A stretch of 64,000 nt of DNA from an uncultured Leptospiraceae bacterium (GCA_964629365.1 CAZVRB010000003.1:17711-81710); one strand, 5' to 3'. Counted from the stretch's first letter, positions 25,393-56,269 are shown. The notes: generated by a model not told the origin, from the sequence alone. Program-made: numbers and translations.

Positions 25393-25522
25393 TGTTTACA
25401 TGATAATAGATTACAGGAGGGGGTTTCCGCAAGTTTTTTTTAATTAATAATTACATCAATCTTTATTGACTTATAGTCTTCAATGTATAACAATCCATAT
25501 AAAAACAAACCGGAGTTATGCC

Positions 25523-26188
25523 ATGCAGCATATCATCAAACACGGTCCGTCATATGCCCTTTTGCATGTTGACCTGTCCCCGGGTGAAACCATCCAGTCA
25601 GAAGCGGGATCCATGGTCTACATGAGTAAACACATGGATGTAAAAACCATGTCGGGAGGGAGCATTCTGACCGCCCTGGCAAGGAAAATACTTGGCGGTG
25701 AATCCTTTTTCCTGAATACATTTTCCGTTGAAGGATCTACAGCAACCCTTGGGCTGGCTGCTTCAATGGCTGGAGATATCCATCATCTCACGCTAAACGG
25801 CAATAGTGTGTACATACAGGGCAGCTCATTTTTATGTTCAGGACCAGGGATCAACACAAAGACAAAATTCGGGGGTATTAGATCCTTACTTGGTGGAGAA
25901 GGACTTTTTCTTTTAAAGACTGAAGGCAACGGGGATCTATTTCTTTCATCATACGGGGCAATACTGCCAATACAGGTTGAATCATCATACATGGTGGATA
26001 CCGGGCATATAGTAGCATTTGAAGATACACTGGACTATTCCATACGCCGGGTTGGTAACTGGAAATCAACCCTGTTTTCCGGAGAAGGCCTGGTTACAGA
26101 GTTCACAGGAAAGGGAACCGTGTGGATACAGACCAGGGTCCCATCGGGATTTATACGATGGCTGATTCGTTTGTTACCGGGGGAATAA
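25523..26188 (+). CDS. AIM24/TIGR00266 (DUF124) family protein, paralog 1
   Basis: ATG at 25523 follows GGAG. MQHIIKHGPSYALLHVDLSPGE...GGESFFLNTF...GEGLFLLK...VDTGHIVAFE match the AIM24 family. Confidence 0.75.
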   Translation: MQHIIKHGPSYALLHVDLSPGETIQSEAGSMVYMSKHMDVKTMSGGSILTALARKILGGESFFLNTFSVEGSTATLGLAASMAGDIHHLTLNGNSVYIQGSSFLCSGPGINTKTKFGGIRSLLGGEGLFLLKTEGNGDLFLSSYGAILPIQVESSYMVDTGHIVAFEDTLDYSIRRVGNWKSTLFSGEGLVTEFTGKGTVWIQTRVPSGFIRWLIRLLPGE

Positions 26189-26189
26189 C

Positions 26190-26867
26190 ATGGATATAAA
26201 TATACAGTATAAGCCATCCTATGCTATTGCAGATATCTTTATGAACGCGGGCGAAAAGATTCTTGCCGAAAGCGGTGCAATGATGAGTTTCTCGCCGGGC
26301 ATATCAATTGAAACCCACAGGGCACAGAAGGGAAAGGGGGTATTACGCTCACTTAAAACATCCTTTCTTGGTGGAGAATCTTTCTGGATGAATACTTTTA
26401 CCGCCACATCCGGCGAAGGAACCGTAACCCTTGCCCCCACCCTTCCCGGTGACATAGCCCTGGTTGACTGTGATGGAACCATTTTCGTGCAGTCATCTTC
26501 ATTCCTTGCCGGAAGTACAGAACTTGAAATGGATACTGCCTTCCAGGGTATGAAGGGTTTTTTCAGCGGTGAATCTCTTTTCTTTTTAAAAATTTCCGGC
26601 CGCGGCCCACTGCTTCTTTCAAGTTACGGTGGCATTGAGGAAATACGGGTAAAGGACAGCCTGGTTGTGGATACCGGACACATAGTAGCCTTTGACGAGG
26701 GATTGAACTATTCAATAAAGAAGTTTGGAGGATGGAAGTCCTTCTTCCTCAGCGGCGAAGGGCTGGTATGTGAGTTCAATGGGAACGGCCGTGTCTGGAT
26801 ACAGTCAAGAAACGTTGCTTCACTTACTACATGGTTAACAGCCAAGCTTCCACCTAAGAAACAATAG
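26190..26867 (+). CDS. AIM24/TIGR00266 family protein, paralog 2
   Basis: Same domain organisation and motifs (GGESFWMNTF, GESLFFLK, VDTGHIVAFDE). A 1-nt gap separates it from paralog 1. Confidence 0.75.
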   Translation: MDINIQYKPSYAIADIFMNAGEKILAESGAMMSFSPGISIETHRAQKGKGVLRSLKTSFLGGESFWMNTFTATSGEGTVTLAPTLPGDIALVDCDGTIFVQSSSFLAGSTELEMDTAFQGMKGFFSGESLFFLKISGRGPLLLSSYGGIEEIRVKDSLVVDTGHIVAFDEGLNYSIKKFGGWKSFFLSGEGLVCEFNGNGRVWIQSRNVASLTTWLTAKLPPKKQ

Positions 26868-26878
26868 GGGTACCATCT

Positions 26879-27559
26879 ATGAATTTTGATATAAACAGCA
26901 GACCAGATTTTTCATGTATAAGAATTGAGTTGCAGGACGGGGAACGCATAATGGCAGAATCGGGCGCCATGGTTGCCATGTCACCTTCAATTCAGATCGA
27001 GACCAGCGCACGCGGCGGAGTTCTGGGATCATTGAAAAGGTCATTTCTCGGTGGTGAATCCTTTTTCATGAATACATTCTCTTCAGTGGGCAGCAGTGGT
27101 GAAATATACTTTTCACCACCCACCTCTGGTGACGTTTGGTCCCTTGACATCGAAAACCGTACATATATTTTATCTACCGGTGCATATGTATGCAGCACTC
27201 CAGGCATTGAACTGGATTCGAAATGGGGAGGAGCTAAAGCTTTCTTCGGTGGTGAAGGACTTTTCTTTCTGAAAGCTGCCGGCAATGGCACGCTGTTCTT
27301 CTCCAGTTTCGGTGCCATCCATGAAATCAATGTGAATGATGAATATATTGTTGATACAGGACATATAGTTGCATTTGAAGAATCACTTCAATACAATATA
27401 GAAAAAGTTGGCGGACTTAAATCACTATTCCTTTCAGGTGAAGGACTTGTATGCAGATTCAAAGGTTCTGGCAAATTATATTTGCAAACCAGGAATAATA
27501 GTTCATTTGCTGCGTGGGCTAACCAGTTTCGAAGAGTGAAAAAATCATCAAATAACTGA
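26879..27559 (+). CDS. AIM24/TIGR00266 family protein, paralog 3
   Basis: Same motifs (GGESFFMNTF, GEGLFFLK, VDTGHIVAFEE). Third tandem copy. Confidence 0.75.
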   Translation: MNFDINSRPDFSCIRIELQDGERIMAESGAMVAMSPSIQIETSARGGVLGSLKRSFLGGESFFMNTFSSVGSSGEIYFSPPTSGDVWSLDIENRTYILSTGAYVCSTPGIELDSKWGGAKAFFGGEGLFFLKAAGNGTLFFSSFGAIHEINVNDEYIVDTGHIVAFEESLQYNIEKVGGLKSLFLSGEGLVCRFKGSGKLYLQTRNNSSFAAWANQFRRVKKSSNN

Positions 27560-30578: not shown

Positions 30579-30779
30579 ATGCAGAATATAAAAGAAGTAT
30601 TGCTTTATAATTGCGACTCACTTGATTACGTGGGTAAAATTACAATCACAGATGATAAGTGGAATTTTGAAGAAATAGACAACGATTTTCTTGTTAAAAC
30701 AACTTCGGGAATGCCGCTTAAGGCCGTTCTTGCTACCCTTATATCTTTTGATTTGGTGTATGACATAATAGAAAACTGA
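30579..30779 (+). CDS. Small hypothetical protein (66 aa)
   Basis: ORF with a plausible RBS region. No recognisable domain. Confidence 0.3.
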   Translation: MQNIKEVLLYNCDSLDYVGKITITDDKWNFEEIDNDFLVKTTSGMPLKAVLATLISFDLVYDIIEN

Positions 30780-30786
30780 GATTGTA

Positions 30787-32049
30787 TTATGAAGACTTCG
30801 TTGGCACCGTAATTTTTTTTAAAACATTGCCTGAAAACGCGTCAATAATATCCTTTATGGTTTGCTCTTCTTCTTCAATTTGATATACATCAATCATGTT
30901 ATCCCTGGCGATATAAAAAGAAATTTCTCCAATTTTGCTGGTAAATATAATATCCACGTTATAATGTATCAAGACCTTCACCACGTTCAGTCCAACATGC
31001 TTTTCTTTCTTTATAAATTCATTCAGGTAGAAATCCTCTATGACAATATCATCTTTATAAATGGTGATAATTGCAAAATAGGGTGCCCTCCCGAAATGAT
31101 GGAAAATCCTGGAGTTTAAGCCATCTACTGTACTAACCGGCACCACGGCCCTGAAAATATCATTTTTCGCCGGCTCCACGGTTACATACACATGTTCCAC
31201 CATGTTAAACCTGTGAATAATATTATCACGAACCCTGTCTGCGATATCCTGCGCGGCGTATACTGTGGCTGAAGGAGCGGTCATCACACTTATGTCTACC
31301 ATATTAAATGGTCCCGCTTCACGGATGGCAACGTCTTTAACCTTTTTTACCCCCTTTATACGCATTGTGTCATCCTGTATCAATTGTTGTAATTCGGGGT
31401 CCATATTTGCATCAAGTAGCACCAGTATTGATCTATACACATTTTCAATACCAATTTTTATAATAAAAAGAGAAATAACCAGGATCGCTCCACCTTCCAT
31501 GTATGGCACTCCAAAGACGGGGAGGAGTATTCCTGAAAGCACAACCAGGGAAGAAATAACATCAAGAAAGGATTCTTTCGCGTTGGCCTCAAGAGACATT
31601 GAATGTATCTCTCGTGCAACTTTCAGCTCAATGATGGCTATACCCGCAGCAAGTATAATGGATAACACCGCGGTGAATGCAGGTATTACCGGTATTGTCT
31701 TCTCTGGTATTTTATGGATAAACAGTTGTTTAAATCCTCCCAGGCCCATATCAATACCGGCATATATTATAAAAATACCGATGAGCAGGGCAGCTATTGT
31801 TTCCGCCCTGTACAATCCATAGGGGAACCGTTTCGACCTGGATTTACCCGCAAGGTACAGCCCCGCAGCGGAAGCGATCACCGCGGCTGAATCAGCAAAA
31901 CTATGTATGGCATCAACCACCAGTACCTGTGAATTATATACAATTCCCACAAGTAATTTGACAGATGCCAGCAGTATTGTCACCACGAAGGCGGCAAATG
32001 CCACATTCCTGCCTTTTTTGACTTTCGACAGGTTATCATTCATAATCAC
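30787..32049 (-). CDS. Cation diffusion facilitator (CDF) transporter fused to a C-terminal NifX/NifB-like (Nitro_FeMo-Co) domain
   Basis: N-terminal 6-TM CDF core (VDAIHSFADSAAV..., HGLYRAETIAALL). ZT_dimer-like cytoplasmic domain. An extra 120-aa domain AVVPVSTVDGLNSRIFHHFGRAPYFAIITI... resembles the NifX/NafY/NifB-C-terminal cofactor-binding fold. Confidence 0.7.
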   Translation of the reverse strand: MIMNDNLSKVKKGRNVAFAAFVVTILLASVKLLVGIVYNSQVLVVDAIHSFADSAAVIASAAGLYLAGKSRSKRFPYGLYRAETIAALLIGIFIIYAGIDMGLGGFKQLFIHKIPEKTIPVIPAFTAVLSIILAAGIAIIELKVAREIHSMSLEANAKESFLDVISSLVVLSGILLPVFGVPYMEGGAILVISLFIIKIGIENVYRSILVLLDANMDPELQQLIQDDTMRIKGVKKVKDVAIREAGPFNMVDISVMTAPSATVYAAQDIADRVRDNIIHRFNMVEHVYVTVEPAKNDIFRAVVPVSTVDGLNSRIFHHFGRAPYFAIITIYKDDIVIEDFYLNEFIKKEKHVGLNVVKVLIHYNVDIIFTSKIGEISFYIARDNMIDVYQIEEEEQTIKDIIDAFSGNVLKKITVPTKSS

Positions 32050-32054
32050 AACAC

Positions 32055-32282
32055 CTATGATTCATCTCTGAACCTGGCCATCATTGGAGTTCCGCACCTT
32101 GAACATTGAACCTTGAAACATGGAACTCCTGGTGTGTGCGGGACAACCTGTCCACATGAGGGACATATACATTCTGCGGGAGGTCCACCACCCTGCCTTC
32201 TTCCCGGTGCACGACCTCCTCCGAATCTTCCCCCTGATCTCCCACCACCGGGGCCTTTTCTGTTACCACGCCTAAAGGGCAT
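32055..32282 (-). CDS. Gly/Arg-rich small zinc-ribbon protein
   Basis: 75 aa. N-terminal RGG/GGR-rich tract followed by CxxC...CxxC (CICPSCGQ...CSRCGTP). Its high local GC reflects Gly/Arg/Pro codons. Confidence 0.5.
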   Translation of the reverse strand: MPFRRGNRKGPGGGRSGGRFGGGRAPGRRQGGGPPAECICPSCGQVVPHTPGVPCFKVQCSRCGTPMMARFRDES

Positions 32283-32299
32283 ATCCGCTCCTCCCGTGA

Positions 32300-32638
32300 T
32301 TAATGGTCACACGCGTTGACACCTTGTTCAAGCCTGTCGTTAACAAAAGCTTCGACTACCTTTTCCGGCTCTTCAGATGGCGCACCTGTTATTACCTTGA
32401 TATTCATCTGCTCAAAAAGCTGCTGGGCCCTGCTGCCCATGCCGCCGGCTATAATGCAATTTGCACCCTGCTGTGAAAGCCATTTGGGCAGCACACCTGG
32501 TTCATGTGGTGGGGGTGTTAGCAAATCAGTGGAAACAATATTTTTTTTGTCCACATCCACATCCACAAGTGCGAATTGCTCACAATGACCAAAATGCATG
32601 CACAATTTTCCGTTGACTATCGGTACAGCTATTTTCAT
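32300..32638 (-). CDS. NifX/NifB-C-terminal-like (Nitro_FeMo-Co) domain protein
   Basis: MKIAVPIVNGKLCMHFGHCEQFALVDV...CIIAGGMG matches the dinitrogenase FeMo-cofactor-binding family fold. Confidence 0.7.
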   Translation of the reverse strand: MKIAVPIVNGKLCMHFGHCEQFALVDVDVDKKNIVSTDLLTPPPHEPGVLPKWLSQQGANCIIAGGMGSRAQQLFEQMNIKVITGAPSEEPEKVVEAFVNDRLEQGVNACDH

Positions 32639-32651
32639 TTTCTTACCTCTT

Positions 32652-33536
32652 CTATTTTATTAATTTTTCTATAATTGATTCGAATGCTTTTATTGCGGCA
32701 TCATTTTCAGAATTTTCCGAAGATACAAATGGTTTACCCATATCCGCGTTTTCGGCAATCTTCAGGGTTATTGGTATACTGCCAAGAAAGGGTACATTCA
32801 TCTGTTCTGACATCCTTGCCCCCCCTCCCGTTCTGAATATATCCACATGTTCATTACAATGAGGACAATTAAAACCACTCATGTTTTCAACAACCCCAAG
32901 TACAGGCATATTCACTTTGTTGCAAAAGGATATTGATTTCTGAACATCGATTATTGCAACCTCCTGCGGGGTAGTCACGACAATTGCTCCATCAGGTTCT
33001 GGTATCAACTGGCATACTGATAAAGGTTCATCACCTGTACCAGGAGGTGAATCGATCACCAGGTAATCAAGTTCTCCCCAGTTTACATCTTTCAGGAACT
33101 GCTTTATGACTGAGTATTTCAATGGGCCTCTCCAGATAACCGGGTCTTCACCTTTTTCCAGCATGAATCCAATTGATATGACTTTCAGATTATCCTTGTA
33201 TATAACCGGGTTCAACTTTTCATTTTCAGCAGTCAGCCTGGTTCCATCAAGATCCAGCATTTTAGGTATACTTGGACCATGAATATCAACATCAAGCAAA
33301 CCAACCCTGTATCCCTTATCCGACAGGGTAACTGCCAGGTTCACCGCCACGGTGCTTTTGCCCACACCCCCTTTACCTGACAGCACTACAAATTTATGCT
33401 TTATTTTACCCAGGGTATTCTGCAATTCCTGCTGTTCTGCCATTTCTTTGGCCTTCTTCTGATCCATACCCTGAGTGCTGGCATCCATAGTTGCCTGTGA
33501 CCCGTTGTCTTTTTTTCCTTTACCAAACATGAACAT
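32652..33536 (-). CDS. Mrp/NBP35/ApbC-family Fe-S cluster carrier ATPase
   Basis: VLSGKGGVGKSTVAVNL Walker A and the C-terminal CPHC motif (FNCPHCNEHVDIF). Confidence 0.85.
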   Translation of the reverse strand: MFMFGKGKKDNGSQATMDASTQGMDQKKAKEMAEQQELQNTLGKIKHKFVVLSGKGGVGKSTVAVNLAVTLSDKGYRVGLLDVDIHGPSIPKMLDLDGTRLTAENEKLNPVIYKDNLKVISIGFMLEKGEDPVIWRGPLKYSVIKQFLKDVNWGELDYLVIDSPPGTGDEPLSVCQLIPEPDGAIVVTTPQEVAIIDVQKSISFCNKVNMPVLGVVENMSGFNCPHCNEHVDIFRTGGGARMSEQMNVPFLGSIPITLKIAENADMGKPFVSSENSENDAAIKAFESIIEKLIK

Positions 33537-33569
33537 TAGCCTCCGTTAATATCATTAATTTCATCATTC

Positions 33570-34085
33570 TTATTTGAGATGCAACCAGTCTTCTTCATTG
33601 TTCACAATTGTCATTCTTTTTGATCTTTTACCGTTTAAAAATTGCTCCATCCATCCTGTTCTAACTTCAACTGCCATATCAAAAGAAGGGCTGTATGGTT
33701 TTATGTCAAGCAAAGGAGTTTCGTTTACCATGTCCACACCCTTGATATACAGGGTATCATCATCAATTTTAACTAATTCAACAAGGGTTATACCTATATG
33801 ATTAGGCCTGTGTGGAGACCGTATAGAGAATATTCCCCGCTGACAGGTATCCATGTATGGTTTTGCTGTCAGCTTGACACTGTTGCTCTGATGAAAAAAA
33901 TACACCAGTATAACATGACTGAATCCATCAAGGTCTCTCAAACCCTCTTTATATTCCGGAAACACTTTTACAGTACCACTGGTATCGGAAGCCATTCGTC
34001 CCTGTATTGGGATACCATTTGATATGGTAGCAAATGGTGTCATGATTTTTCCAATGGGTGTTAATAGAATTTCAGATTGTTCCAA
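33570..34085 (-). CDS. TrmO/TsaA (YaeB)-like domain protein
   Basis: LTPIGKIMTPF...GFSHVILVYFFH pattern of the YaeB-like SAM-binding beta-barrel. Overlaps the upstream gene by 14 nt. Confidence 0.6.
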   Translation of the reverse strand: MEQSEILLTPIGKIMTPFATISNGIPIQGRMASDTSGTVKVFPEYKEGLRDLDGFSHVILVYFFHQSNSVKLTAKPYMDTCQRGIFSIRSPHRPNHIGITLVELVKIDDDTLYIKGVDMVNETPLLDIKPYSPSFDMAVEVRTGWMEQFLNGKRSKRMTIVNNEEDWLHLK

Positions 34086-34935
34086 TTATCTTCTCCCACA
34101 GGCTCCTTATTTCCTTTGATGCGGCACCATCAGAGTATTCCACAATGGATTTTGCTTCTACCTGTGACATCACAAAATCTGTATCATAGGGTATCTTTCC
34201 TGCCACATCAATACCCTTTGTATCTGCAAAACTTACAATTTCTTCTGTATTTTCTTCATGAATATCATATTTATTTATGCATATTGACAAAGGTATTCTG
34301 AAATGTTCAGATAACTCTATTACTCTTTTCAAATCGTGTATTCCTGACAAAGTAGGTTCAGTTACCACCAGGACATGTGAAGCTCCTGTTATTGATGCAA
34401 TCACCGGACAGCCAATTCCCGGTGCTCCATCCACTATTAGCAGGTCAAAACCCTTCTCTTCTGCAATCAACTTCGCTTTTTCCCGAACAAGTGAAACCAT
34501 CTTGCCCGAATTTTCTGCTGCTATACCAAGTTTCGCGTGAACCATGGGGCCATACCTGGTATTGGATATGAACCAGTTTCCACTTATTTCATGATTCATG
34601 ATAATGGCGTTGTAGGGACAGAAGTATGAACAAACACTGCATCCCTCACACAGAAGGGGATTTACATCAAAGCTATAGCCGTCAGTTATGGCGTCGAACC
34701 TGCATACAGACACACACTGGCCGCATCGCATGCAGAAATCCTGCCTGATCTCAGCCACCTTGCCGCCAACGAACTCTCCTTCTTCCTGTATAACAGGACC
34801 CAATAGAAGATGAAGATCCGCGGCATCCACGTCACAGTCAGCCATCACCATATCTTTTGCCAGCATGGCAAATGATGCGGCTATACTGGTTTTTCCTGTC
34901 CCACCCTTTCCGCTTATAATTACAAGTTCTTTCAT
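34072..34935 (-). CDS. MinD/CooC-like P-loop ATPase with two [4Fe-4S] ferredoxin motifs
   Basis: ISGKGGTGKTSIA Walker A. CMRCGQCVSVC and CEGCSVCSYFCP ferredoxin cysteine clusters inserted in the ATPase. Confidence 0.8.
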   Translation of the reverse strand: MKELVIISGKGGTGKTSIAASFAMLAKDMVMADCDVDAADLHLLLGPVIQEEGEFVGGKVAEIRQDFCMRCGQCVSVCRFDAITDGYSFDVNPLLCEGCSVCSYFCPYNAIIMNHEISGNWFISNTRYGPMVHAKLGIAAENSGKMVSLVREKAKLIAEEKGFDLLIVDGAPGIGCPVIASITGASHVLVVTEPTLSGIHDLKRVIELSEHFRIPLSICINKYDIHEENTEEIVSFADTKGIDVAGKIPYDTDFVMSQVEAKSIVEYSDGAASKEIRSLWEKIIGTI

Positions 34936-35798
34936 TGTTTGCCTCCATATGCCAGGTGTGACAGGTCAGCATGGTCCAGAATTGAATCAAATACGTCACG
35001 ATAATTGTCCAGAAGATAGGTAACGATGTCTCCAGCCGCGTAATGCTCTGCGATAACCCGATCATGTGGAATCCTGCCCACAATGCTGATTCCATTTTCC
35101 CTGCAATAGTTCTCAACATCATTATTTCCCAGGCCATCTTTGTTTATCAGAACACCACCCGGCAGGCCTATTTCGTTTATCATGGCAACTGCAAGTTTAA
35201 GATCGTTTAATCCAAATGGAGTTGGTTCCGTCACCAGAAGTACATAGTCACTTCCAATAACTGATTCGATTACAGGACAGGATGTTCCCGGTGGGGCATC
35301 AATTACGGTAAGATCACCTGATACTACGTGTTTGCGCACCGCTTTGATCAATGGAGGTGAGATAGCCTGGCTGATATTTGTTCTTCCTCCCACGTACCTG
35401 AGGTTTTCGATGTATCCTTCTTCAACTATGCCAATCTCCTTTTGAACTTCTGATATAGCCTCTACCGGGCATATCAACATGCATCCACCACATGAATGAC
35501 ACATATCCGGGAAAACCAGGGGTTTTTTCTTTACCATAACTATCGCACTGTATTCACACAGCTGATCACATTTTCCACAACCATTACACCTATCCATGTT
35601 GACTTCGGGTATCGGCACGTATACATTTTCCTTTACGCTTATGCTGGTCTTCAAAAATAAGTTAGCATTGGGCTCTTCCACATCACAATCCAGTATGTGT
35701 ATTTCCCTTTCCTGTATTTCAGACATATAAGAAGCAAGGGCAACCGCTATTGTTGTTTTACCTGTACCACCCTTCCCGCTTGCCACGCTTAGAATCAT
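34932..35798 (-). CDS. MinD/CooC-like P-loop ATPase with two [4Fe-4S] ferredoxin motifs (paralog)
   Basis: VASGKGGTGKTTIA, CNGCGKCDQLC and CHSCGGCMLICP. A 4-nt overlap with the downstream paralog indicates translational coupling. Confidence 0.8.
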   Translation of the reverse strand: MILSVASGKGGTGKTTIAVALASYMSEIQEREIHILDCDVEEPNANLFLKTSISVKENVYVPIPEVNMDRCNGCGKCDQLCEYSAIVMVKKKPLVFPDMCHSCGGCMLICPVEAISEVQKEIGIVEEGYIENLRYVGGRTNISQAISPPLIKAVRKHVVSGDLTVIDAPPGTSCPVIESVIGSDYVLLVTEPTPFGLNDLKLAVAMINEIGLPGGVLINKDGLGNNDVENYCRENGISIVGRIPHDRVIAEHYAAGDIVTYLLDNYRDVFDSILDHADLSHLAYGGKQ

Positions 35799-35818
35799 AA
35801 TTCACTCCTTGAATACTG

Positions 35819-36661
35819 TCAAAATTGAAGAACTGTGCCCGCTGAAGCATTTACAAATATACCAGGCAGCATTTCAGCCAGTTGTTCCTGCACCTGTTCT
35901 CCTGTACAATGATTGGCGGCCAATAACTGCACATCATACTTCTTGAATATATCAATCGCCCTTTCAACATAATCCCGGGGGGCACTGGATAAATGTGTAC
36001 CTCCCACAATGCCATAAATCCTGTCAACCTGTCTGACATCGGCAACCTTTTCTATTATTTCAATTATTCCGGCATGGGCGCATCCAACGCATAAAACCAG
36101 CCCTGAATCAGTATCAACAATCAGTGAGGTGTCATCATTGAATGGATCATGAATAAATGTGTCATTATCTTCACACATAAGACGCTCATCCCAGGAAATC
36201 CAGCTCTCTGGCCTTGGTATATCACTTAAAGAGGTAATAAATGAATTTACTGGTTCAACATTTCTAATAAAACGTATATCCGCGCCACTTTCAATTAAAA
36301 GATCATATGAATACTGTATTCCAATATCAGCTGCAACAGGCTGATTATCAACATTCGTAATAGCTGCCTTTCTCTTAAACGCGTCAGGGTGAACATGAAC
36401 CGGGACGCCCCTGTCACGGGCGGAAAGTAGTGCCAGGAGTCCCCCGGTATGATCATAGTGACCATGACTGAGTACTATCCTGTCGATAGATTCCGGATCG
36501 ATATTCATGATTTCCATGTTCTTCAGCAATGACATGCTCTGACCTGTATCAAGCATAACACGTTCGTTTTGCTCGATCATCATGGATAACCCATGTTCGG
36601 CATACAGCCCCGACCCGGGTACAGCCGTATTTTCACTGATGACAGAAATAGTTGTCTTCAT
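35819..36661 (-). CDS. MBL-fold metallo-hydrolase
   Basis: VLSHGHYDHTGG motif (HxHxDH). Confidence 0.75.
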   Translation of the reverse strand: MKTTISVISENTAVPGSGLYAEHGLSMMIEQNERVMLDTGQSMSLLKNMEIMNIDPESIDRIVLSHGHYDHTGGLLALLSARDRGVPVHVHPDAFKRKAAITNVDNQPVAADIGIQYSYDLLIESGADIRFIRNVEPVNSFITSLSDIPRPESWISWDERLMCEDNDTFIHDPFNDDTSLIVDTDSGLVLCVGCAHAGIIEIIEKVADVRQVDRIYGIVGGTHLSSAPRDYVERAIDIFKKYDVQLLAANHCTGEQVQEQLAEMLPGIFVNASAGTVLQF

Positions 36662-36679
36662 ATAGTCACTTATACTCGC

Positions 36680-37057
36680 TTATTCTTTTACTTCATCCAG
36701 CTCATTCAATCGCTTCTGAATGTCATCAAGCGCTGATTTGAAATAATCAGCCTGATCTTTCAGCATGTTAATTTCATCTTCCCGTGAAATTCCCGCTGAA
36801 TAATTATAGGGCATCGGGGCTGGATTATTCCAGGCATATCGTGGAGCTGATGTCCGCATCCATCCGGGTAAGCCGGTTGCGTAATACAAGTGCCGGTACC
36901 CCCTGCCTCTGCCGCGGCCACCACCGCCGCCCCATCCAATAAACCTGCCTGCTCCCGCGTTTGCGAAACCGGGTCGATCACTTCCTGCGCAGAACCCCAT
37001 TGCCCTGCCTGTCATTGGTCCCCCGCCATATGGACCTGTTCCATCTCCTGCTGGCAT
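36680..37057 (-). CDS. Gly-rich protein with C-terminal coiled coil (DUF5320-like)
   Basis: 125 aa. GPYGGGPMTGRAMG...GGGGGRGRGRG tract, then the helix MLKDQADYFKSALDDIQKRLNELDEVKE. This type accompanies NifX-like/MinD-Fer4 clusters. Confidence 0.5.
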   Translation of the reverse strand: MPAGDGTGPYGGGPMTGRAMGFCAGSDRPGFANAGAGRFIGWGGGGGRGRGRGYRHLYYATGLPGWMRTSAPRYAWNNPAPMPYNYSAGISREDEINMLKDQADYFKSALDDIQKRLNELDEVKE

Positions 37058-37083
37058 AACACTCCTCCTTTAAATAATTATTT

Positions 37084-37443
37084 TTACCAGTGACCTTCAA
37101 CATCCGCGTCACCGGCCTTTGTCAGCTTACCGTTTTTGAAATCTTCAACAGCCGATGCCACGGTATTTTCAGCACCGTTATATATTTCAATATCAGAAGC
37201 CGACAGGGTTGTAAAAGCTTTGGGTCCCACATGTCCTGTTAAAAGGACCTGTGCTCCTGAATTAATTACGTTCTTTGCTGATTGTATCCCCGCCCCCTGG
37301 GGCAGGTTCAGATTCTGCTGATTATCCATGTACTCAAATGAATCATTATCAGTATCATACAGAATGAATCCTTTTGCCCTTCCAAAACGCGGATCTACCT
37401 TCGAATCAAGGGTATTTCCCTGTGCAGTAATTGCAATTTTCAT
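37084..37443 (-). CDS. NifX/NifB-C-terminal-like (Nitro_FeMo-Co) domain protein
   Basis: MKIAITAQGNTLDSKVDPRFGRAKGFILYD...LLTGHVGPKA. Confidence 0.7.
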   Translation of the reverse strand: MKIAITAQGNTLDSKVDPRFGRAKGFILYDTDNDSFEYMDNQQNLNLPQGAGIQSAKNVINSGAQVLLTGHVGPKAFTTLSASDIEIYNGAENTVASAVEDFKNGKLTKAGDADVEGHW

Positions 37444-37446
37444 TAT

Positions 37447-37869
37447 TTAACTCCTTTCATCATAGTCGTTCTTTTTAATAATTTCACTGTAATACGGACA
37501 TCTACCATTTCTGTTTCTTCTACGCCACCTGCAGCCCGGCATTGTAAACTGTTCGATGTTCAATTTCCCGTTGCAGAATGCTATCAATATTTCACCAGTT
37601 TCTCCAATTACTCCCGGGATAATATCTATTTCATTGTTCAATAACATAACCGCCTGCTGTCGACTGATGGCACTGCATATAACCAGGTTTATGCCGTATG
37701 ACTTTAGAAATGAAATCTTTTGCCGCTCATTGGCTAATGAATGCTCCATGATTCGTATGTCATTCACTTCACCGTCCCTGATATCAGCTATCAGAAAGGT
37801 TCCGGCAACATCGAAAAGAGGTGCCACACGTTCCCTGTAGACCGGTATTGCTATTTTTTTCACTTCCAT
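37447..37869 (-). CDS. NifX-like (Nitro_FeMo-Co) domain protein with C-terminal Cys/Arg-rich tail; first gene of the cluster
   Basis: KKIAIPVYRERVAPLFDVAGTFLIADI... matches the fold. C-terminal tail PGCRWRRRNRNGRCPYY. ATG at 37869. Confidence 0.65.
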   Translation of the reverse strand: MEVKKIAIPVYRERVAPLFDVAGTFLIADIRDGEVNDIRIMEHSLANERQKISFLKSYGINLVICSAISRQQAVMLLNNEIDIIPGVIGETGEILIAFCNGKLNIEQFTMPGCRWRRRNRNGRCPYYSEIIKKNDYDERS

Positions 37870-37882
37870 ACCATGATATAAA

Positions 37883-37897
37883 GCAATTCATGTGCCA
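37883..37897 (-). promoter_or_regulatory. Sigma-54 (-24/-12) promoter: TGGCACA-TGAA-TTGCT
   Basis: Minus-strand sequence TGGCACATGAATTGCTT matches the RpoN consensus TGGCACG-N4-TTGCW with correct GG-N10-GC spacing. It sits directly upstream of the 37869 start codon and beside the sigma-54 activator gene. Confidence 0.6.
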
Positions 37898-38036
37898 GTG
37901 GCATCACGATTCATTTTATTTAATATATTACAGTCTATATTCTACTTTTTCTTCGAATTTGATTTACAATATATCATATTTGTTGACATTTTGTTTGGTA
38001 ATTGCGGTGATATTGAAATTTCGCAGGCAAGAAAAA

Positions 38037-38085
38037 TTGCATAATGCAATACTGGTGGCATATTTGTGTTGCATTATGCAATACT
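38037..38085. promoter_or_regulatory. Two copies of palindrome TTGCA-N3-TGCAA (+ATACT) spaced 32 bp apart; candidate upstream activator sequence
   Basis: ttgcataatgcaatact (38037-38053) and ttgcattatgcaatact (38069-38085). They lie 150-190 bp upstream of the sigma-54 promoter and overlap the 3' end of the activator gene. Confidence 0.45.
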
Positions 38086-39406
38086 ATCGTATGTGATACT
38101 TGTTTATTTTTCTCCAAAGGGTTGACTTATCAATTCCAAGCTCATCGGCTGTTTTCGAACGGTTCCATTCATTTTTCTCAAGTGTCTTTTTTATATATGA
38201 TTTTTCAAGTTCTTCCAGGGTAACAGGTTTCCCGGTATCGATACTGCTTTGCCTGAGATGGGCAGGAAGATGCTGTGCCTGTACATAGGGCTCCTTGCAG
38301 AGAACGAATGCGTGTTCTATTATATTTTCCAGTTCACGAATGTTCCCCGGATACTGGTATTCCATGAGAATATTCATAACCGTATCTGATACACCTTCTA
38401 TCTCCCTGTCCCTGATAAGGTTGAATCGTCGAACGAAATGCTTTACAAGGATGGGAATATCTTCTTTACGGTCCCGCAGGGGTGGAAGCTTGATATTAAC
38501 GATATTCAACCTGTAATACAGGTCATCCCGGAAAGCACCTGACTTGACTTCATCATGCAGCACCTTGTTGGTTGCCGCTATTATTCTCACGTTGGCTTTT
38601 TCGCCTTCTACTGCTCCCAGTGGTTCGTAGGTTTTCTCCTGTAAAAAGCGTAGAAGTTTCACCTGCAGGGCGATAGAAATTTCACCTATCTCATCAAGAA
38701 AAACTGTACCACCCTCTGCTGTAGCGATTTTTCCAGGTTTATCCTTTCTAGCGTCTGTAAATGCACCGGCCTTGTAGCCAAAAAGTTCGGATTCCAGCAA
38801 CGTATCAGGAAGCGCGGCACAATTAATTACAACAAGCCTGTTATCAGATCTCCTGCTCAGATTATGAATGGCCCTGGCAATCAGTTCTTTTCCTGTTCCA
38901 CTGGGCCCCTCTATAAGTACAGAACTGTCGCTTTCGGCTATATCAGGCAAAATCCCGAAAAGATCCATCATCTGGCTGTTTTTGCTGACAATGTCTTCGA
39001 ATGTATATTTTGATTCTATAGTTTTGCGCAGCTCAATAATATCTGAAATATTTCGAAATGTTTCAACACCGCCGATTATAGTACCGTCAGTATTGCGCAA
39101 TAATGCAGTACTGATACTTACGGGTATCTTTTCACCTTCGGCGTTTACAATATATATTGTTTTGTTAACTATATTTTTACCGCTGGTGAATGTTTCACGC
39201 AAGGCGCAGGAGTGTTCACATATATTAGCATGAAAAACCTCAAAACAATACTTCCCCAATGCCTCATCTTGTGATATATGCAGAATGGATTGGGCAGCCT
39301 TGTTAACCGATGTTATCCTGTAATCCAAATCAACGGTAAACACTCCATCGGCAATACTATCCAGTATGATATTGTCACTGTTAAAACCACTTTCAATTGA
39401 ATTCAT
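38084..39406 (-). CDS. Sigma-54-dependent transcriptional activator (bEBP): PAS sensor + AAA+ sigma-54 interaction domain + Fis-type HTH
   Basis: GPSGTGKELIARAIH Walker A, ESELFGYKAGAFTDA GAFTGA motif, and a C-terminal HTH. The N-terminal PAS domain carries C-x4-H-x3-C-x3-C. Confidence 0.9.
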   Translation of the reverse strand: MNSIESGFNSDNIILDSIADGVFTVDLDYRITSVNKAAQSILHISQDEALGKYCFEVFHANICEHSCALRETFTSGKNIVNKTIYIVNAEGEKIPVSISTALLRNTDGTIIGGVETFRNISDIIELRKTIESKYTFEDIVSKNSQMMDLFGILPDIAESDSSVLIEGPSGTGKELIARAIHNLSRRSDNRLVVINCAALPDTLLESELFGYKAGAFTDARKDKPGKIATAEGGTVFLDEIGEISIALQVKLLRFLQEKTYEPLGAVEGEKANVRIIAATNKVLHDEVKSGAFRDDLYYRLNIVNIKLPPLRDRKEDIPILVKHFVRRFNLIRDREIEGVSDTVMNILMEYQYPGNIRELENIIEHAFVLCKEPYVQAQHLPAHLRQSSIDTGKPVTLEELEKSYIKKTLEKNEWNRSKTADELGIDKSTLWRKINKYHIR

Positions 39407-39480: not shown

Positions 39481-39519
39481 ATAAAAAAACGATGTACAGC
39501 ACATCCTGTACATCGTTTT
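39481..39519 (-). terminator. Rho-independent terminator of the ect operon
   Basis: 12-bp perfect inverted repeat AACGATGTACAG/CTGTACATCGTT with a 6-nt loop, followed on the minus strand by T7. Located 50 nt downstream of the ectC stop. Confidence 0.65.
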
Positions 39520-39568
39520 ATCACAAAGTATTGTATTTTTCAATAACTATTGCATTTTGCAATGTTTT

Positions 39569-39967
39569 TTATTTATCACCCGGTGGCGGATATGAACCAT
39601 CTTCCCGGTGAACTTCTTTTCCCGTAAGTGCCGGATCAAATACACATATCAGCCTCATGTCGCTGTTAAACGCACGCAAATAGTGTTCATCATGCTCATT
39701 GAGGGCATACATGGTACCAGGATTTATTGGATATTTCTTTCCATCCGTGATGGTTTCCACCTCACCCTCACCTTCAATACAGTATACTGCTTCAAGATGA
39801 TTCTTGTACCATATATGAGTTTCGGTATTGGCATATATTATGGTTTCATGAAAAGAAAACCCCATTTTATCATCTGCCAGTACCATTCTCCTGCTGGTCC
39901 AGTTCCCATTTTCAGCATGAACTTCTCTTTCAGAGTTCTTAATCTCGTCAATTGTGCGGACTATCAT
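39569..39967 (-). CDS. ectC: L-ectoine synthase
   Basis: 132 aa cupin. [33 protein letters not shown]...[28 protein letters not shown]...HDEHYLRA...[21 protein letters not shown] is near-identical in pattern to characterised EctC. Confidence 0.92.
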
Positions 39968-41244
39968 GCGGGTTCTTCTCCTTTCAGCATGGCTTCACGC
40001 TTTTCCAGCACCGCACCTATGGACTCGTCAATTATGCCAAGACCTTCTTTCAACAATTCTTCTTCGATGACAAGTGGGGGCAGAAACTTGAGCACATCAT
40101 CCTTTGCACCCGCAAGTTCGATTATCAATCCCCGTTCAAAAGCCGCCTCTGACACGTCAGCACAGAATCCCAGGAATGGTATATGCAGCCCGTATATCAA
40201 TCCACGTCCACGCACGGATGCGTCCAGGCTGGGATATTTTTTGACGATTTTCTCAAGTTCTTCTTTTAATATCTTTTCCTTGTAAAACACCGCGTCAGAC
40301 AGGTTTGCATTTTCCCAGTAGCTGAACAGCTTGGTGGATGCCACGAAGGCCAGGTTGTTTCCCCTGAATGTACCGGTATGCTCACCTGGTTTCCACTGGT
40401 CTAATTCGGGCTTTATAAGAACCAGTGAAAGTGGCAGACCACCGCCGATTGACTTTGACAGAACGATAACGTCAGGGTTAATACCCGATTCTTCAAAGCT
40501 GAAAAATGTACCAGTTCTTCCATTTCCGATCTGTATCTCGTCAGCTATCAGCAATATGTCGTAATCACGGCATATCTTTTCTATTTCCTGCAGCCATTCG
40601 TTTGACGCCACATTCACACCGCCTTCAGCCTGAACCGTCTCAACAATAATTGCCGCCGGTATATCCACGCCGCTGCTCACGTCATCAAGAAATTTTCTCA
40701 TATACTCAGCAGTATTTACACCATCACCGAAGTAGTTATCATAGGGCATAAAGGAAACATTCTGCCTGTTAATGAATGCTTCGTCCCTGTAAAAAGCGTT
40801 ACCGGTTACCGCCATAGAGCCCATGGTAAGCCCGTGAAAACCGTTGGTAAATGAAATGATATTGGATCTGCCTTTTACCATGCGTACAAGTTTCAACGCT
40901 GTCTCAACCGCGTTTGTACCCGTAGGACCGGCAAACTGAACCTTGTATTCCATATGCCTGGGTTCCAGGATGGTGTAATACAACGCCTCAAGAAAGGCTT
41001 TCTTCGCGGTTGTCGCCTTGTCAAGGCCATGCACGATACCGTCATTCTGTATATACTCTATAAGTGCCTCTGACACCATCGGGTTATTATGGCCATAATT
41101 AAGTGTGCCCGCACCGGCAAAGAAATCAATATATTCCTTGTCCTGTTCATCGAAAAGCTTTGACCCTTTTGCCTTGTTAAAAATCGTAGGAAAATGGCGT
41201 ACATAACTTCTCACCTGTGATTCCATCTGTTCGAATATTCTCAT
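39964..41244 (-). CDS. ectB: Diaminobutyrate--2-oxoglutarate transaminase
   Basis: N-terminus [55 protein letters not shown] is diagnostic for EctB. Class-III aminotransferase. 4-nt overlap with ectC. Confidence 0.92.
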
Positions 41245-41789
41245 TGTTCCTCCTTGTTTTTTTTTCTAACTATTTTACTGCTGAAGGGTCCGATCCTGAA
41301 AAGATCCTCAGGTTCGTGCTCTTCACCTCCAAACATTTCCGCGGAAAAATAATCACTCTCATTGCATTCAGTCTCGAGATGAGATGCAAGATTTCTGAAA
41401 AATCCACGTGAAGCGGAATTTGAAGGGGTAACAGTAGTTTCAATAAACTGAATACCATCAAGATGTGACCGCGATAGAATATCCAGTATCATCTTCCTGG
41501 CAAGTCCCATTTTTCGCATGGTTTTGCTTACTGCCACCTGCCATACGAAAAGGGTATCATCCTTTTTAGGATGCCTGTATCCTGATATGTACCCTGTTAT
41601 TTCCCCATCACTTTCAACTACAACACTTGTTGTATCATGATGGGCACATATCAGCAGGTAACTGTATAATGAATTTAAATCCAGTGGTTTTGACGCGTCA
41701 ACAAGCTTGTAAACAGCAATACCATCACCCGGTTGGGGTTTTCGAAATATTATACTACTTGTGTTGTTCGAGTCATCATTTTCACTCAT
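41241..41789 (-). CDS. ectA: L-2,4-diaminobutyrate acetyltransferase (GNAT)
   Basis: IFRKPQPGDGIAVYKLV...LDLNSLYSYLL...TSVVVESDGEITGYISGY pattern of EctA. Position upstream of and overlapping ectB. Confidence 0.85.
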   Translation of the reverse strand: MSENDDSNNTSSIIFRKPQPGDGIAVYKLVDASKPLDLNSLYSYLLICAHHDTTSVVVESDGEITGYISGYRHPKKDDTLFVWQVAVSKTMRKMGLARKMILDILSRSHLDGIQFIETTVTPSNSASRGFFRNLASHLETECNESDYFSAEMFGGEEHEPEDLFRIGPFSSKIVRKKNKEEQ

Positions 41790-48709: not shown

Positions 48710-51115
48710 ATGGTAAGAAGGATCGAAAAGGCAGCCGTTATAGGCTCCGGTATCATGGGTGGTGGTATCGCTGCTCTTTTGGCTGATGCTGGTGTGGATA
48801 CACTGCTACTCGACATCGTTCCTTTTGATTTGAAAGATGACGAGAAGAAAGATCCTGCAGCACGGAACAGAATAGTTCAGGCCGGGTTTGATGGCATGAT
48901 GAAGGCCAAGCCTGCGCTGATAATGGACAAAAAAAATGCTGCACGAATCTCTCTCGGTAACCTGGATGATGATTTTGATAAGCTCAAAGATTGTGACCTT
49001 ATCGTTGAAGTTGTTATCGAGAATCTTAAAATCAAACAGGATCTGTTTTCAAAGATCGATAAGATCAGAAAGCCAACAGCAGTTATCACATCTAACACCT
49101 CTGGTCTTCCTTTAAAGGAAATGTCTAAACCATGCAGCGATGCATTCAAAGAGCATTTTCTTGGAACTCACTTCTTCAACCCTGTGCGATACATGCACCT
49201 TCTGGAACTTATTCCAGGCGAACAGACTAAAGAAGAAGTTCTTGATTTCATAGCTGATTTCGGTGAAAAGAGACTTGGTAAAGGTATAGTATGGGCAAAA
49301 GATACTCCTAACTTTATCGGTAACCGTATCGGTGTTCATGAAATCATGACAGTTTTCAAACTGATCGACGAATTTGATATGAGTATCACAGAAGTTGACG
49401 CGTTAATGGGTCCCTCAATGGGTCGACCAAAAACAGCGGTGTTCAAACTTTCTGACATGGTTGGTCTTGATACAATTGATCACCTTGCTGAAAACTCATA
49501 CGAACTTCTGACCAATGACGAACGTCGGGAAGCATACAAAACTCCCGAATGGTTCAACAAAATGATCGAGAACAAGTGGTATGGCGACAAAACCAAGGGT
49601 GGTTTTTACAAAAAAGAAAAAACCCCTGAAGGCAAAAGGAAAAAACTTGTTATCGATCCAAAAGCACTTGACTACAAAGAAGTCGATAAACCTGAAATCG
49701 ACATAGCCAAAGAAGCAAAGAAGAAGCCTACTGCTTCTGAAAAGATCAACACAATTGTATGGGGAAAAGGCAAGTATGCTGAATTCGCATGGAAGCTTAC
49801 CGCTATCGGTGCTATTTACGCTGCCAACAGGATCCCCGAGATCGCTGAAAACTTAACAGAAATTGACAACGCCATGACATGGGGTTACAATCTTGAGCTT
49901 GGTCCATTTCAGGCATGGGATGCCATAGGTGTTGAAAAATCTGTTGAAAGAATGGAAAAAGAAGGAATGGACGTACCTGAAAACGTCAAGAAGATGCTGG
50001 CATCAGGTGCAAAGACCTTCTACAAGATCGAAAACGGTGTTGAATCATACTATGACCTGGTTGAAGGCGGCTACAAAGAAGTACAGAAGAGTGAAAAAGC
50101 AATTTCACTTTTCAACCTTAAAGGTGCCGGAAACAAGGTTAAAGGAAACGACTCAGTTACTCTTGTTGACATCGAGGACGGTATCTTCTGTGTTGAATTC
50201 CACACAAAGATGAATGCCATCAACGGTGATATCGTTGAGTTTCTGCCGGAAGTTCTTGATTACGTAAAAGAAAACGGTATTGGTATCGTTATAGGTAATG
50301 AAGCTGGTGGAATGCCAGGCGCATTTTCCGCTGGTGGAGACCTTGGATACATGGGAAAGCTGGCAAAGGATAAGAAATGGTCAGACATTGATGCTTTTAT
50401 AAAGAATGTCCATGAAAACCTTCTGGCCGTTAGATATTCACCACTACCAGTAGTTGCAGCACCTTATGGCATGACCCTTGGCGGCGGATGTGAAGTCAGC
50501 CTGGCAGCAGACAGAATCGTTGCCCACACTGAGCTGTTTATGGGACTTGTTGAAATCGGTGCCGGTCTTCTTCCTGGCGGACTTGGAATGATGAACCTCT
50601 GGAGAAAATTTCTTGCTGGTATTCCAAAATCCGCAAACATTACTGACCTTGCCGGAATCTTCCTGCCCTGCTTTATGAACGTAGCACAGGCAAAGGTTTC
50701 CATGTCAGCAGCACAGGCCCGAACACTTGGTTATATCGGACAGTCAGATCGAATCGTTATGAACCGTGACCTTCTCATTGGCGAAGCCAAGAAAGAAGCA
50801 CTCAAGATGGTTGATGACGGGTATGCACCTCCTCTAAAAACCAAGATTAAAGTTATTGGCCGTGAAGCCCAGGGTATGGTAGAAGCCGAAATGCTTAACA
50901 TGAAAAGCGGTGGATACATTACACCACACATGGAGTTTATTGCCAAGAAGATCGCAGGCGTTCTCTCCGGTGGCGAAGTAATCCAGGGAACAGAGATCAC
51001 CGAGGAACAGTGGATGAAGCAGGAACGTGAAGCGTTCGTTGAACTCTGGAAGACAGAAAATACCCAGAAAATGGCTGAGCACATGCTCACAACTGGTAAG
51101 CCATTAATGATATAA
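48710..51115 (+). CDS. Fatty-acid oxidation multifunctional protein: N-terminal 3-hydroxyacyl-CoA dehydrogenase + C-terminal enoyl-CoA hydratase/isomerase (FadN/FadB-like)
   Basis: IGSGIMGGGIA Rossmann motif, HCDH domain, then a crotonase-fold domain. 801 aa. RBS GGAGG upstream. Noticeably higher GC and codon bias than its neighbours. Confidence 0.85.
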   Translation: MVRRIEKAAVIGSGIMGGGIAALLADAGVDTLLLDIVPFDLKDDEKKDPAARNRIVQAGFDGMMKAKPALIMDKKNAARISLGNLDDDFDKLKDCDLIVEVVIENLKIKQDLFSKIDKIRKPTAVITSNTSGLPLKEMSKPCSDAFKEHFLGTHFFNPVRYMHLLELIPGEQTKEEVLDFIADFGEKRLGKGIVWAKDTPNFIGNRIGVHEIMTVFKLIDEFDMSITEVDALMGPSMGRPKTAVFKLSDMVGLDTIDHLAENSYELLTNDERREAYKTPEWFNKMIENKWYGDKTKGGFYKKEKTPEGKRKKLVIDPKALDYKEVDKPEIDIAKEAKKKPTASEKINTIVWGKGKYAEFAWKLTAIGAIYAANRIPEIAENLTEIDNAMTWGYNLELGPFQAWDAIGVEKSVERMEKEGMDVPENVKKMLASGAKTFYKIENGVESYYDLVEGGYKEVQKSEKAISLFNLKGAGNKVKGNDSVTLVDIEDGIFCVEFHTKMNAINGDIVEFLPEVLDYVKENGIGIVIGNEAGGMPGAFSAGGDLGYMGKLAKDKKWSDIDAFIKNVHENLLAVRYSPLPVVAAPYGMTLGGGCEVSLAADRIVAHTELFMGLVEIGAGLLPGGLGMMNLWRKFLAGIPKSANITDLAGIFLPCFMNVAQAKVSMSAAQARTLGYIGQSDRIVMNRDLLIGEAKKEALKMVDDGYAPPLKTKIKVIGREAQGMVEAEMLNMKSGGYITPHMEFIAKKIAGVLSGGEVIQGTEITEEQWMKQEREAFVELWKTENTQKMAEHMLTTGKPLMI

Positions 51116-51154
51116 CAAACGCATAAATATTTTATGCAACAGGAGGAGAAATTT

Positions 51155-56268: not shown

Positions 56269-56269
56269 A

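Follow-up and report, generated by a model that had tools for sequence, protein, structure and literature searches.

Which metal-handling system is encoded by a run of eleven genes for NifX-like proteins, MinD-type ATPases and an Mrp-type iron-sulfur (Fe-S) carrier, with no nitrogenase beside them, is the question raised by a stretch of DNA from an uncultured Leptospiraceae bacterium (GCA_964629365.1, CAZVRB010000003.1:17711-81710). The window is the full 64,000 nt of this stretch, and locus numbering refers to positions in the whole of it. Eleven minus-strand open reading frames (ORFs; 30787-37869) lie downstream of a sigma-54 promoter and of a gene (38084-39406) for a 440 aa bacterial enhancer-binding protein (bEBP) with a PAS domain. 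A preliminary description of this DNA had called the cluster a candidate uncharacterised system, a label that is replaced here: the cluster is, on good support, an orp locus, encoding the orange protein (ORP) complex and its activator OrpR in one sigma-54 operon of a Spirochaetota genome. The ORP system is real and widespread, has already been studied in Desulfovibrio and is not newly discovered here; the species it carries and its physiological purpose are unproven. The explanation developed below, an orp locus together with a proposed handling of metal-sulfide species, is considered probable as a whole.

Identity of the cluster and its control region

The features of the cluster and its control region are as follows, in the direction of transcription.

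39486-39519, minus strand: strong intrinsic terminator, 14-bp stem and T run, dividing ectABC from orpR
38084-39406, minus strand: orpR-like sigma-54 activator, 440 aa (Pfam PAS, Sigma54_activat, AAA_lid_14, HTH_8)
38037-38049 and 38069-38081, no strand assigned: two exact copies of the palindrome TTGCATWATGCAA, a candidate OrpR upstream activating sequence (UAS)
37882-37897, minus strand: sigma-54 promoter TGGCAC-N5-TTGCT, TGGCACatgaaTTGCT
37447-37869, minus strand: NifX-like protein, 140 aa, the operon's first gene (PF02579, 29.7 bits)
37084-37443, minus strand: orange protein (Orp8-type), 119 aa (PF02579, 79.6 bits)
36680-37057, minus strand: DUF5320 protein (PF17253, 82.4 bits)
35819-36661, minus strand: metallo-hydrolase of the metallo-beta-lactamase (MBL) fold, 2P4Z/TM1679 type (Lactamase_B, 44 bits)
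34932-35798, minus strand: MinD-type ATPase with two [4Fe-4S] motifs, Orp3/Orp4-type, paralogue A (Pfam CbiA/ParA and Fer4)
34072-34935, minus strand: MinD-type ATPase with two [4Fe-4S] motifs, paralogue B (Pfam; 31% identical to A)
33570-34085, minus strand: short TrmO/UPF0066-like protein, N-terminal domain alone (PF01980, TrmO_N, 134 bits; 14-nt overlap with the previous gene)
32652-33536, minus strand: Mrp/NBP35 Fe-S carrier ATPase, N-terminal half of MrpORP (Orp9) (PF10609, 347 bits)
32300-32638, minus strand: NifX-like protein, 112 aa, 4 Cys, the detached Di-Nase domain of MrpORP (NF041136 positions 265-364, 139.7 bits)
32055-32282, minus strand: 75-aa protein with a Gly/Arg-rich N-terminus and a Cys6His module, CxCPxCG...H...C...CxxCG (homologue alignment)
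30787-32049, minus strand: CDF transporter with a C-terminal, Cys-free NifX-like domain (Pfam Cation_efflux, ZT_dimer, Nitro_FeMo-Co)

Much of the preliminary description held up. ORFs were found for all of its eleven tightly packed genes, and the computed intergenic gaps (3, 26, 18, 20, -4, -14, 33, 13, 17 and 5 nt) span the range of -14 to +33 nt that it gave; overlaps and gaps of this size indicate co-translation units. Pfam confirmed its domain calls, namely two Fer4 ATPases, the Mrp protein with a CPHC motif, TrmO, MBL, DUF5320, CDF and four Nitro_FeMo-Co (PF02579) proteins, the last at 29.7, 79.6, 73.7 and 51.8 bits against a cut-off of 26.3, with the 140-aa protein (37447-37869) the weakest scorer. 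The reported lack of nifHDK or of an obvious client enzyme was also borne out: Pfam searches with the window's larger ORFs, including those at 24-30 kb, gave no match to nitrogenase, carbon monoxide dehydrogenase (CODH) or hydrogenase, and none to nifHDK, nifEN or nifB. Its general reading, the handling of Fe-S-type or other metal clusters, fits published work on ORP.

In Desulfovibrio vulgaris Hildenborough (DvH), the orp locus comprises DVU2103-2109, with the gene for OrpR (DVU2106) situated between two operons (PMC3897727). The MinD-like proteins of this locus, Orp3 and Orp4, carry two [4Fe-4S] motifs apiece; the orange protein is Orp8, a small, Cys-rich [2Fe-2S] protein is Orp5, and Orp9 (MrpORP) is an Mrp/NBP35 domain, with a deviant Walker A and a CXXC motif, fused to a Di-Nase (NifX-like) domain (PMC6345978). 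The cluster in the window is assigned to this system because of the match of its 119-aa protein to a solved orange protein structure, the coverage of the NCBIfam MrpORP model (NF041136), the paired 2x[4Fe-4S] ATPases, the signatures of OrpR, the promoter and the palindromes. The top PDB match of the 119-aa protein, which has no Cys, is 2WFB, the ORP of Desulfovibrio gigas (E 4.5e-25, residues 2-110). The Mrp gene covers positions 2-249 of NF041136 at 395 bits, and its product has a GKGGVGKS Walker A motif and CPHC at residue 224. The Mrp and NifX-like parts are fused in 12 ORFs among related loci, and split forms occur there too.

The likeness to DvH thus extends to an orange protein orthologue, two 2x[4Fe-4S] MinD-type ATPases, the MrpORP modules, a sigma-54 promoter and a PAS-bEBP with a three-Cys plus acidic motif and a GAFTDA loop, in an anaerobe and without a client enzyme. 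However, DvH has two divergent operons whereas the window has a single co-directional one, MrpORP is fused in DvH and split over two genes in the window, the host belongs to the Spirochaetota, and MBL, TrmO-like and CDF-NifX genes are added. For the DUF5320 protein and the 75-aa Cys6His protein, no named DvH counterpart was verifiable.

For comparison, genomes were scanned with an aligned set of MinD-Fer4 ATPases, which yielded 80 related loci; the DvH locus is not among them. The phyla represented include Desulfobacterota, Planctomycetota, Spirochaetota, Chloroflexota, Bacillota and Omnitrophota, as well as Ignavibacteria, Acidobacteriota, Bathyarchaeia, Thermoplasmatota and others. Clustering of these genes is far beyond chance, since the MinD-Fer4 pairs of the 80 loci, which come from many phyla, are accompanied by the same families.

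The PAS domain of the bEBP contains the motif C54-F-E56-x6-C63-x3-C67, the spacing of which equals that of C52, D/E54, C61 and C65 in DvH OrpR, where the three Cys and the acidic residue hold the redox-sensing cluster (PMC8359166). At residue 214 it has a GAFTDA loop, a rare form that equals the variant listed for DVU2106. In DvH, OrpR is a [4Fe-4S]-PAS redox sensor and its regulon consists of the orp operons only (PMC8359166). Homologues of the bEBP with the same Cys motif adjoin orp genes in 16 other loci, among them loci of Planctomycetota, Ignavibacteria, Hydrogenedentota and Desulfobacterota. The range of OrpR had been suggested to be restricted to Deltaproteobacteria (PMC8359166); the OrpR/sigma-54 circuit reaches beyond that class, into Spirochaetota, Planctomycetota, Ignavibacteria and Hydrogenedentota.

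The promoter and the adjacent PAS-bEBP gene of the preliminary description were both confirmed, except that the promoter, described as near-consensus, is an exact match and the sole zero-mismatch occurrence of TGGCAC-N5-TTGCW in the 64-kb window. An equivalent motif precedes the first gene by 29-68 nt in 13 of 28 related loci. The window (37869-37897) and loci L006 (598-631) and L008 (7701-7732) all have 12 nt separating TTGCW from the ATG, and therefore transcription would be predicted to start about 0-3 nt before the ATG, which would leave the first gene nearly leaderless and without space for a Shine-Dalgarno sequence.

The two TTGCATWATGCAA palindromes lie 140-200 nt upstream of the promoter and are the only zero-mismatch copies in the window; with up to one mismatch three copies are found against 0.27 expected. 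In two other spirochaete loci, L006 and L008, the orthologous promoter is likewise preceded by this palindrome. From this arrangement we infer that OrpR would bind at these palindromes. The third copy, with one mismatch (TTGCATTTTGCAA, 39550-39562), sits in the interval that separates the ectC stop codon from the terminator, some 145 nt before orpR begins, and could be either an autoregulation site or a chance match.

ATPases, carrier proteins and transporter

Each ATPase carries two Fer4 motifs, CNGCGKCDQLC and CHSCGGCMLICP in one and CMRCGQCVSVC and CEGCSVCSYFCP in the other. The AlphaFold model of paralogue A (pLDDT, the predicted local distance difference test score, 90.3) has a MinD core with a ferredoxin domain of ~85 residues inserted after switch I. 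Its top Foldseek matches were archaeal MinD, FleN/FlhG, McdA, Cfd1 and ATPase-type HypB; none of the first 50 was a NifH or BchL structure, and no solved structure was found for the whole architecture of MinD with a ferredoxin insert. CooC-type ATPases are without this insert, whereas the window ATPases carry it and match MinD best; a CooC-type linkage was not seen either, as there is no cooS or acs in the window or among the recurrent neighbours of the 80 loci.

Beyond the eight ferredoxin Cys, both MinD-Fer4 paralogues keep an invariant C38 (D-C-D, switch I) and C174 (DAPPGTSCP, placed in switch II by alignment to MinD), which may provide an additional metal or cluster site where the dimer subunits meet. 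A NifH-like ATPase pair with an inter-subunit cluster was also considered, a candidate that was dropped given that MinD came first among the structural matches and NifH and BchL were missing from the top 50.

Both MinD-Fer4 proteins, and the Mrp protein, end in C-terminal amphipathic helices; their hydrophobic moments, 0.60-0.69, rank at the 99th percentile or higher for the protein concerned. A membrane-targeting helix has been described for Orp3/Orp4 (PMC6345978), with which these helices agree, yet they are not specific.

The gene for the 140-aa NifX-like protein directly follows orpR in most of the orpR-bearing loci. Its product has a conserved C65 and an MPGC113 motif followed by an Arg-rich tail (CRWRRRNRNGRC). 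Natural fusions of a NifX-like domain, an Arg/Gly-rich linker and a Cys6His module occur in L031 (509-1072), L039 (6381-7025) and L078 (7032-7721), and show that the first and tenth genes of the window are halves of one functional unit in other lineages.

The product of this tenth gene, the 75-aa protein, belongs to no Pfam or NCBIfam family above threshold, although its pattern of C38, C40, C43, H49, C55, C60 and C63 is invariant in 30 of 30 homologues; its first 36 residues have an isoelectric point (pI) of 12. Of the 80 loci, 31 have the gene, in many cases immediately before the MinD-Fer4 pair. The DUF5320 protein has an N-terminal region (residues 1-95, pI 9.9) with 24 Gly, 10 Arg+Lys, 13 aromatic residues, 9 Pro and 1 Cys, and a C-terminus resembling a coiled-coil, acidic helix. 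The N-terminal motif is conserved, with C23 kept in 42 of 47 sequences; a literature search found DUF5320 named only in unrelated papers. Judged by position, either the 140-aa NifX-like protein or the 75-aa Cys6His protein may be the counterpart of Orp5, and the DUF5320 protein that of Orp7.

A comparison can be made with IssA of Pyrococcus furiosus, in which an IPR003731 domain is joined to a 70-residue cationic, Gly/aromatic/Pro-rich tail (pI 10.7, one Cys) that binds anionic thioferrate (PMC5524996). The two systems are alike in pairing a NifX-like/IPR003731 domain with a disordered, cationic sequence that is rich in Gly, Arg, aromatic residues and Pro and has just one Cys (in the window, DUF5320 residues 1-95), a likeness of composition. 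They differ in that small proteins encoded by their own genes, or a short tail, carry most of the cationic segments in the window, and in the ATPases and transporter that the window system also has. According to work cited in PMC6345978, the orange protein binds [S2MoS2CuS2MoS2]3- non-covalently. Because the IssA tail binds thioferrate, the orange protein binds a Mo-Cu-S anion and the compositions match, a common theme is plausible by analogy, in which NifX-like pockets and cationic disordered partners would hold anionic metal-sulfide species.

The last gene was confirmed to encode a transporter; its start is probably the ATG at 32043 rather than the GTG at 32049 previously assigned, because public gene calls give 418 aa. 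It shares the Cation_efflux and ZT_dimer architecture of Fe(II)-type CDFs (MamM, MamB and FieF), which are also its nearest NCBIfam models at 115-120 bits, far below their equivalog cut-offs, and it differs from them in the added C-terminal NifX-like domain. The three-domain fusion forms a family of at least 120 protein clusters, for which a literature search gave no functional description. Across this family D46, H49 and D53, together with E159, S160 and D163, are invariant, and the NifX-like domain is conserved and Cys-free. The transmembrane (TM) metal site is made up of the invariant H49/D53 (TM2) and E159/D163 (TM5). Most CDFs have His or Asp at the TM5 position that Glu occupies in this family, and the metal specificity predicted from these residues may be unusual.

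Elsewhere, in four contexts, the neighbours of CDF-NifX genes include a 2x[4Fe-4S] ferredoxin, NifU, ARMT1-like, MBL, TrmO_N and radical SAM (S-adenosylmethionine) genes, as well as FeoAB, ZIP, Mrp and MinD-Fer4. In one of them (L088) a fusion of NifU_N with a SAM methyltransferase (1948-2919) adjoins MBL, Mrp, MinD-Fer4 and CDF-NifX genes.

The MBL-fold protein matches PDB entries 2P4Z (E 4e-31) and 3H3E, and homologues are found near the CDF-NifX genes of L088 and L089. The TrmO-like protein, which is without the second domain of bacterial TrmO, scores 124 bits with TIGR00104 (cut-off 93), and its top PDB match is the archaeal AF_0241 (2NV4). Genes of this type lie inside orp operons at varying positions in L006, L007, L021, L031 and L039. 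Both proteins are conserved accessories without an assigned step in the mechanism proposed below.

Distribution among related loci and surroundings of the cluster

Apart from MinD-Fer4 paralogue A, present in 80/80 loci as the query family, the most frequent components are the second MinD-Fer4 paralogue (74/80), the orange protein (71/80) and the MrpORP-type NifX domain (63/80). DUF5320 (40/80) and Mrp (39/80) occur in about half, followed by the Cys6His protein (31/80), the first NifX-like protein (28/80), OrpR (22/80), MBL (18/80) and the TrmO-like protein (8/80). Gene order in L006 is identical to that of the window. Recurrent neighbours are NifU_N (19/80), radical SAM (18/80), DUF134 and ARMT1-like (16/80 each), Zn_ribbon_8 (13/80), SAM methyltransferase (12/80) and a CoADR-like flavoprotein (10/80). 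No homologue of NifU_N, radical SAM, DUF134, ARMT1-like, the FmdB zinc ribbon, CGGC or FeoB was detected in the window. No large client enzyme recurs near the orp genes of the 80 loci, nor anything of the size of a nitrogenase or CODH. The preliminary description had allowed for such a client directly adjacent in relatives; none was found, hence the cluster is not a known maturation operon.

The cluster is flanked upstream by a complete ectABC ectoine operon (39569-41789, minus strand), encoding a GNAT acetyltransferase, a class-III aminotransferase and ectoine synthase, the presence of which fits a salt-adapted host. At the other end, a 66-aa ORF on the plus strand (30579-30779) is convergent on the end of the operon; it is also called in the public contig and has no family match. 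Further away, three AIM24-family paralogues of 225-240 aa each lie in a row (25466-27559, plus strand), adjoining CYTH, Germane-domain and papain-like peptidase genes. The window also contains Pel-type exopolysaccharide genes at 54823-57646 (DUF3492 glycosyltransferase and PelG), a fatty-acid beta-oxidation set (48710-52366) and an acyl-CoA dehydrogenase gene (15034-16896).

Proposed working of the system and competing explanations

The most likely working of the locus is that of a complex induced at low redox and dependent on ATP, which handles metal-sulfide clusters and is tied here to a membrane metal transporter. At low redox, OrpR with its [4Fe-4S]-PAS domain would act at the two TTGCATWATGCAA palindromes and open the sigma-54 promoter, a principle taken from DvH and represented in the window by conserved motifs. 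The Mrp protein and the detached NifX-like domain, together a split MrpORP, would then load [4Fe-4S] clusters onto both MinD-type ATPases; the DvH MrpORP is an Fe-S carrier that loads Orp3/Orp4 in vitro, and its Di-Nase domain binds a cluster of its own (PMC6345978). The loaded ATPase pair would form a complex with the Cys-free orange protein, as indicated by the co-purification shown in DvH. NifX-like pockets may carry an anionic metal-sulfide species non-covalently, either of the Mo/Cu-thiometallate type or of the Fe-S/thioferrate type, and the cationic DUF5320 protein, the Cys6His mini-protein and the Arg-rich tail of the first NifX-like protein may hold the anionic species in the manner of the IssA tail. 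Finally, CDF-NifX may couple the cytoplasmic metal-sulfide pool to metal transport across the membrane, in either direction. Three parts of this scheme are inferred: what is carried, what the cationic proteins do and how the transporter is connected. A broader form of it, that ORP clusters in general are carriers of anionic metal-sulfide polymers or clusters (thioferrate-like Fe-S, or Mo/W/Cu thiometallates) with NifX-like pockets, cationic clamps, a MinD-type ATPase drive and, in some lineages, CDF-NifX, is put forward tentatively, as a possibility on the unlikely side.

Several observations weigh against the identification and the scheme. The case for orthology draws on the 2WFB entry for the ORP of D. 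gigas, on the NCBIfam model of MrpORP, on motifs known from the literature and on the genes nearby; each half of the split MrpORP, scored by itself, stays below the 450 bits set as cut-off for NF041136, and counterparts of Orp5 and Orp7 are unmapped. The OrpR site of DvH (GGGCGYRTTTTGCGCCC) is unlike the window palindromes in sequence. The orp promoters of DvH depend on sigma-54, OrpR and IHF (PMC3897727), and no match to the IHF consensus (WATCAANNNNTTR) with up to one mismatch occurs in the 139-nt spacer (73% A+T) between UAS and promoter; an IHF site is not a defining feature of the ORP protein system. The idea of cationic partners for an anionic cluster draws on amino acid composition alone. 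Inactivation of orpR alters cell morphology (PMC8359166), which the proposed model does not explain. Lastly, CDF-NifX is found in 0/80 of the loci obtained with the MinD-Fer4 query, and its link to orp is therefore lineage-specific or loose.

This last figure, along with the low counts for MBL (18/80) and the TrmO-like gene (8/80), would be expected if the ORP core alone were a functional unit and the MBL, TrmO-like and CDF-NifX genes were unrelated but co-transcribed, an explanation that could also draw on the TrmO-like protein passing the cut-off of a tRNA methyltransferase equivalog. It is nevertheless doubtful, as orp operons from several phyla contain TrmO-like genes at positions that vary, CDF-NifX genes of unrelated genomes likewise have MBL, TrmO_N and orp-type genes beside them, and the gaps and overlaps indicate co-translation units. 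Several components are left without a role if the locus is taken to be a cell-division or septum-positioning device, as in the Desulfovibrio literature, where the ATPases would sit at the membrane or poles by their amphipathic helices and the clusters would serve as mere redox sensors: NifX-like, CDF, DUF5320 and Cys6His proteins are all unaccounted for. The MinD-like structure of the ATPase core, the terminal helices on both MinD-Fer4 proteins and Mrp, the published morphology defects (PMC8359166) and the polar localisation of MrpORP (PMC6345978) are in its favour. With no MinC, MinE or other division genes in the cluster or among recurrent neighbours, which are instead metal and Fe-S genes, with terminal helices that are not specific and a literature that itself calls the role unclear (PMC8359166), we regard it as quite improbable.

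The preliminary description's own reading, applied to ORP, would be of a Nif-like biosynthetic line building a heterometal-sulfur cofactor for a client encoded elsewhere. The cluster resembles NifX/NafY/NifB-NifH trafficking in its NifX-like carrier domains, its SIMIBI P-loop ATPases and the Fe-S scaffold links of its relatives, and such a line could account for four NifX-like domains in one cluster, for the recurrence of NifU_N and radical SAM (19/80 and 18/80 related loci), for the SAM-binding TrmO-like domain and recurring methyltransferases, and for the cluster bound by the MrpORP Di-Nase domain itself. The differences make it rather unlikely: nifHDK, nifEN and nifB are lacking, the carriers best match ORP and MrpORP, the ATPases have ferredoxin inserts and fold like MinD, NifH and BchL being absent from the top 50 matches, and the window is without the NifU and radical-SAM family of its relatives, while neither the 80 loci nor the four CDF-NifX contexts offer a client candidate and the DvH OrpR regulon is confined to the orp operons. 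A more specific version, in which the operon serves maturation of nitrogenase (NifX/NafY) or CODH (CooC) with the client outside the window, is suggested by family names alone (Nitro_FeMo-Co, and P-loop ATPases of the CooC/NifH superfamily). It is close to refuted, as nothing the size of a nitrogenase or CODH is among the recurrent neighbours in the 80 loci and neither enzyme was found in the window, and both the NifX-like proteins and the ATPases with a ferredoxin insert have their best matches elsewhere (ORP/MrpORP and MinD).

The proposed handling of metal-sulfide species by an ORP complex bears on a system that has been described as anaerobe-specific and the function of which has been open since 2011; no publication after 2021 was found that resolves it, and the literature searched gave no substrate or client. 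The loci sampled here span many anaerobe phyla. They reveal DUF5320 and a family-less Cys6His mini-protein to be regular ORP partners, the cationic partners parallel the IssA tail, and a widespread CDF-NifX fusion transporter shares orp-type gene neighbourhoods. Together, the wider range of OrpR, the regular partners, the parallel with IssA and CDF-NifX speak for metal-sulfide handling rather than for cell division. If the broader form of the scheme is true, the ORP system would represent a pathway of metal storage and trafficking of the sulfide world, apart from ISC, SUF and NIF, and the locus and its relatives supply concrete proteins with which ORP function can be tested.

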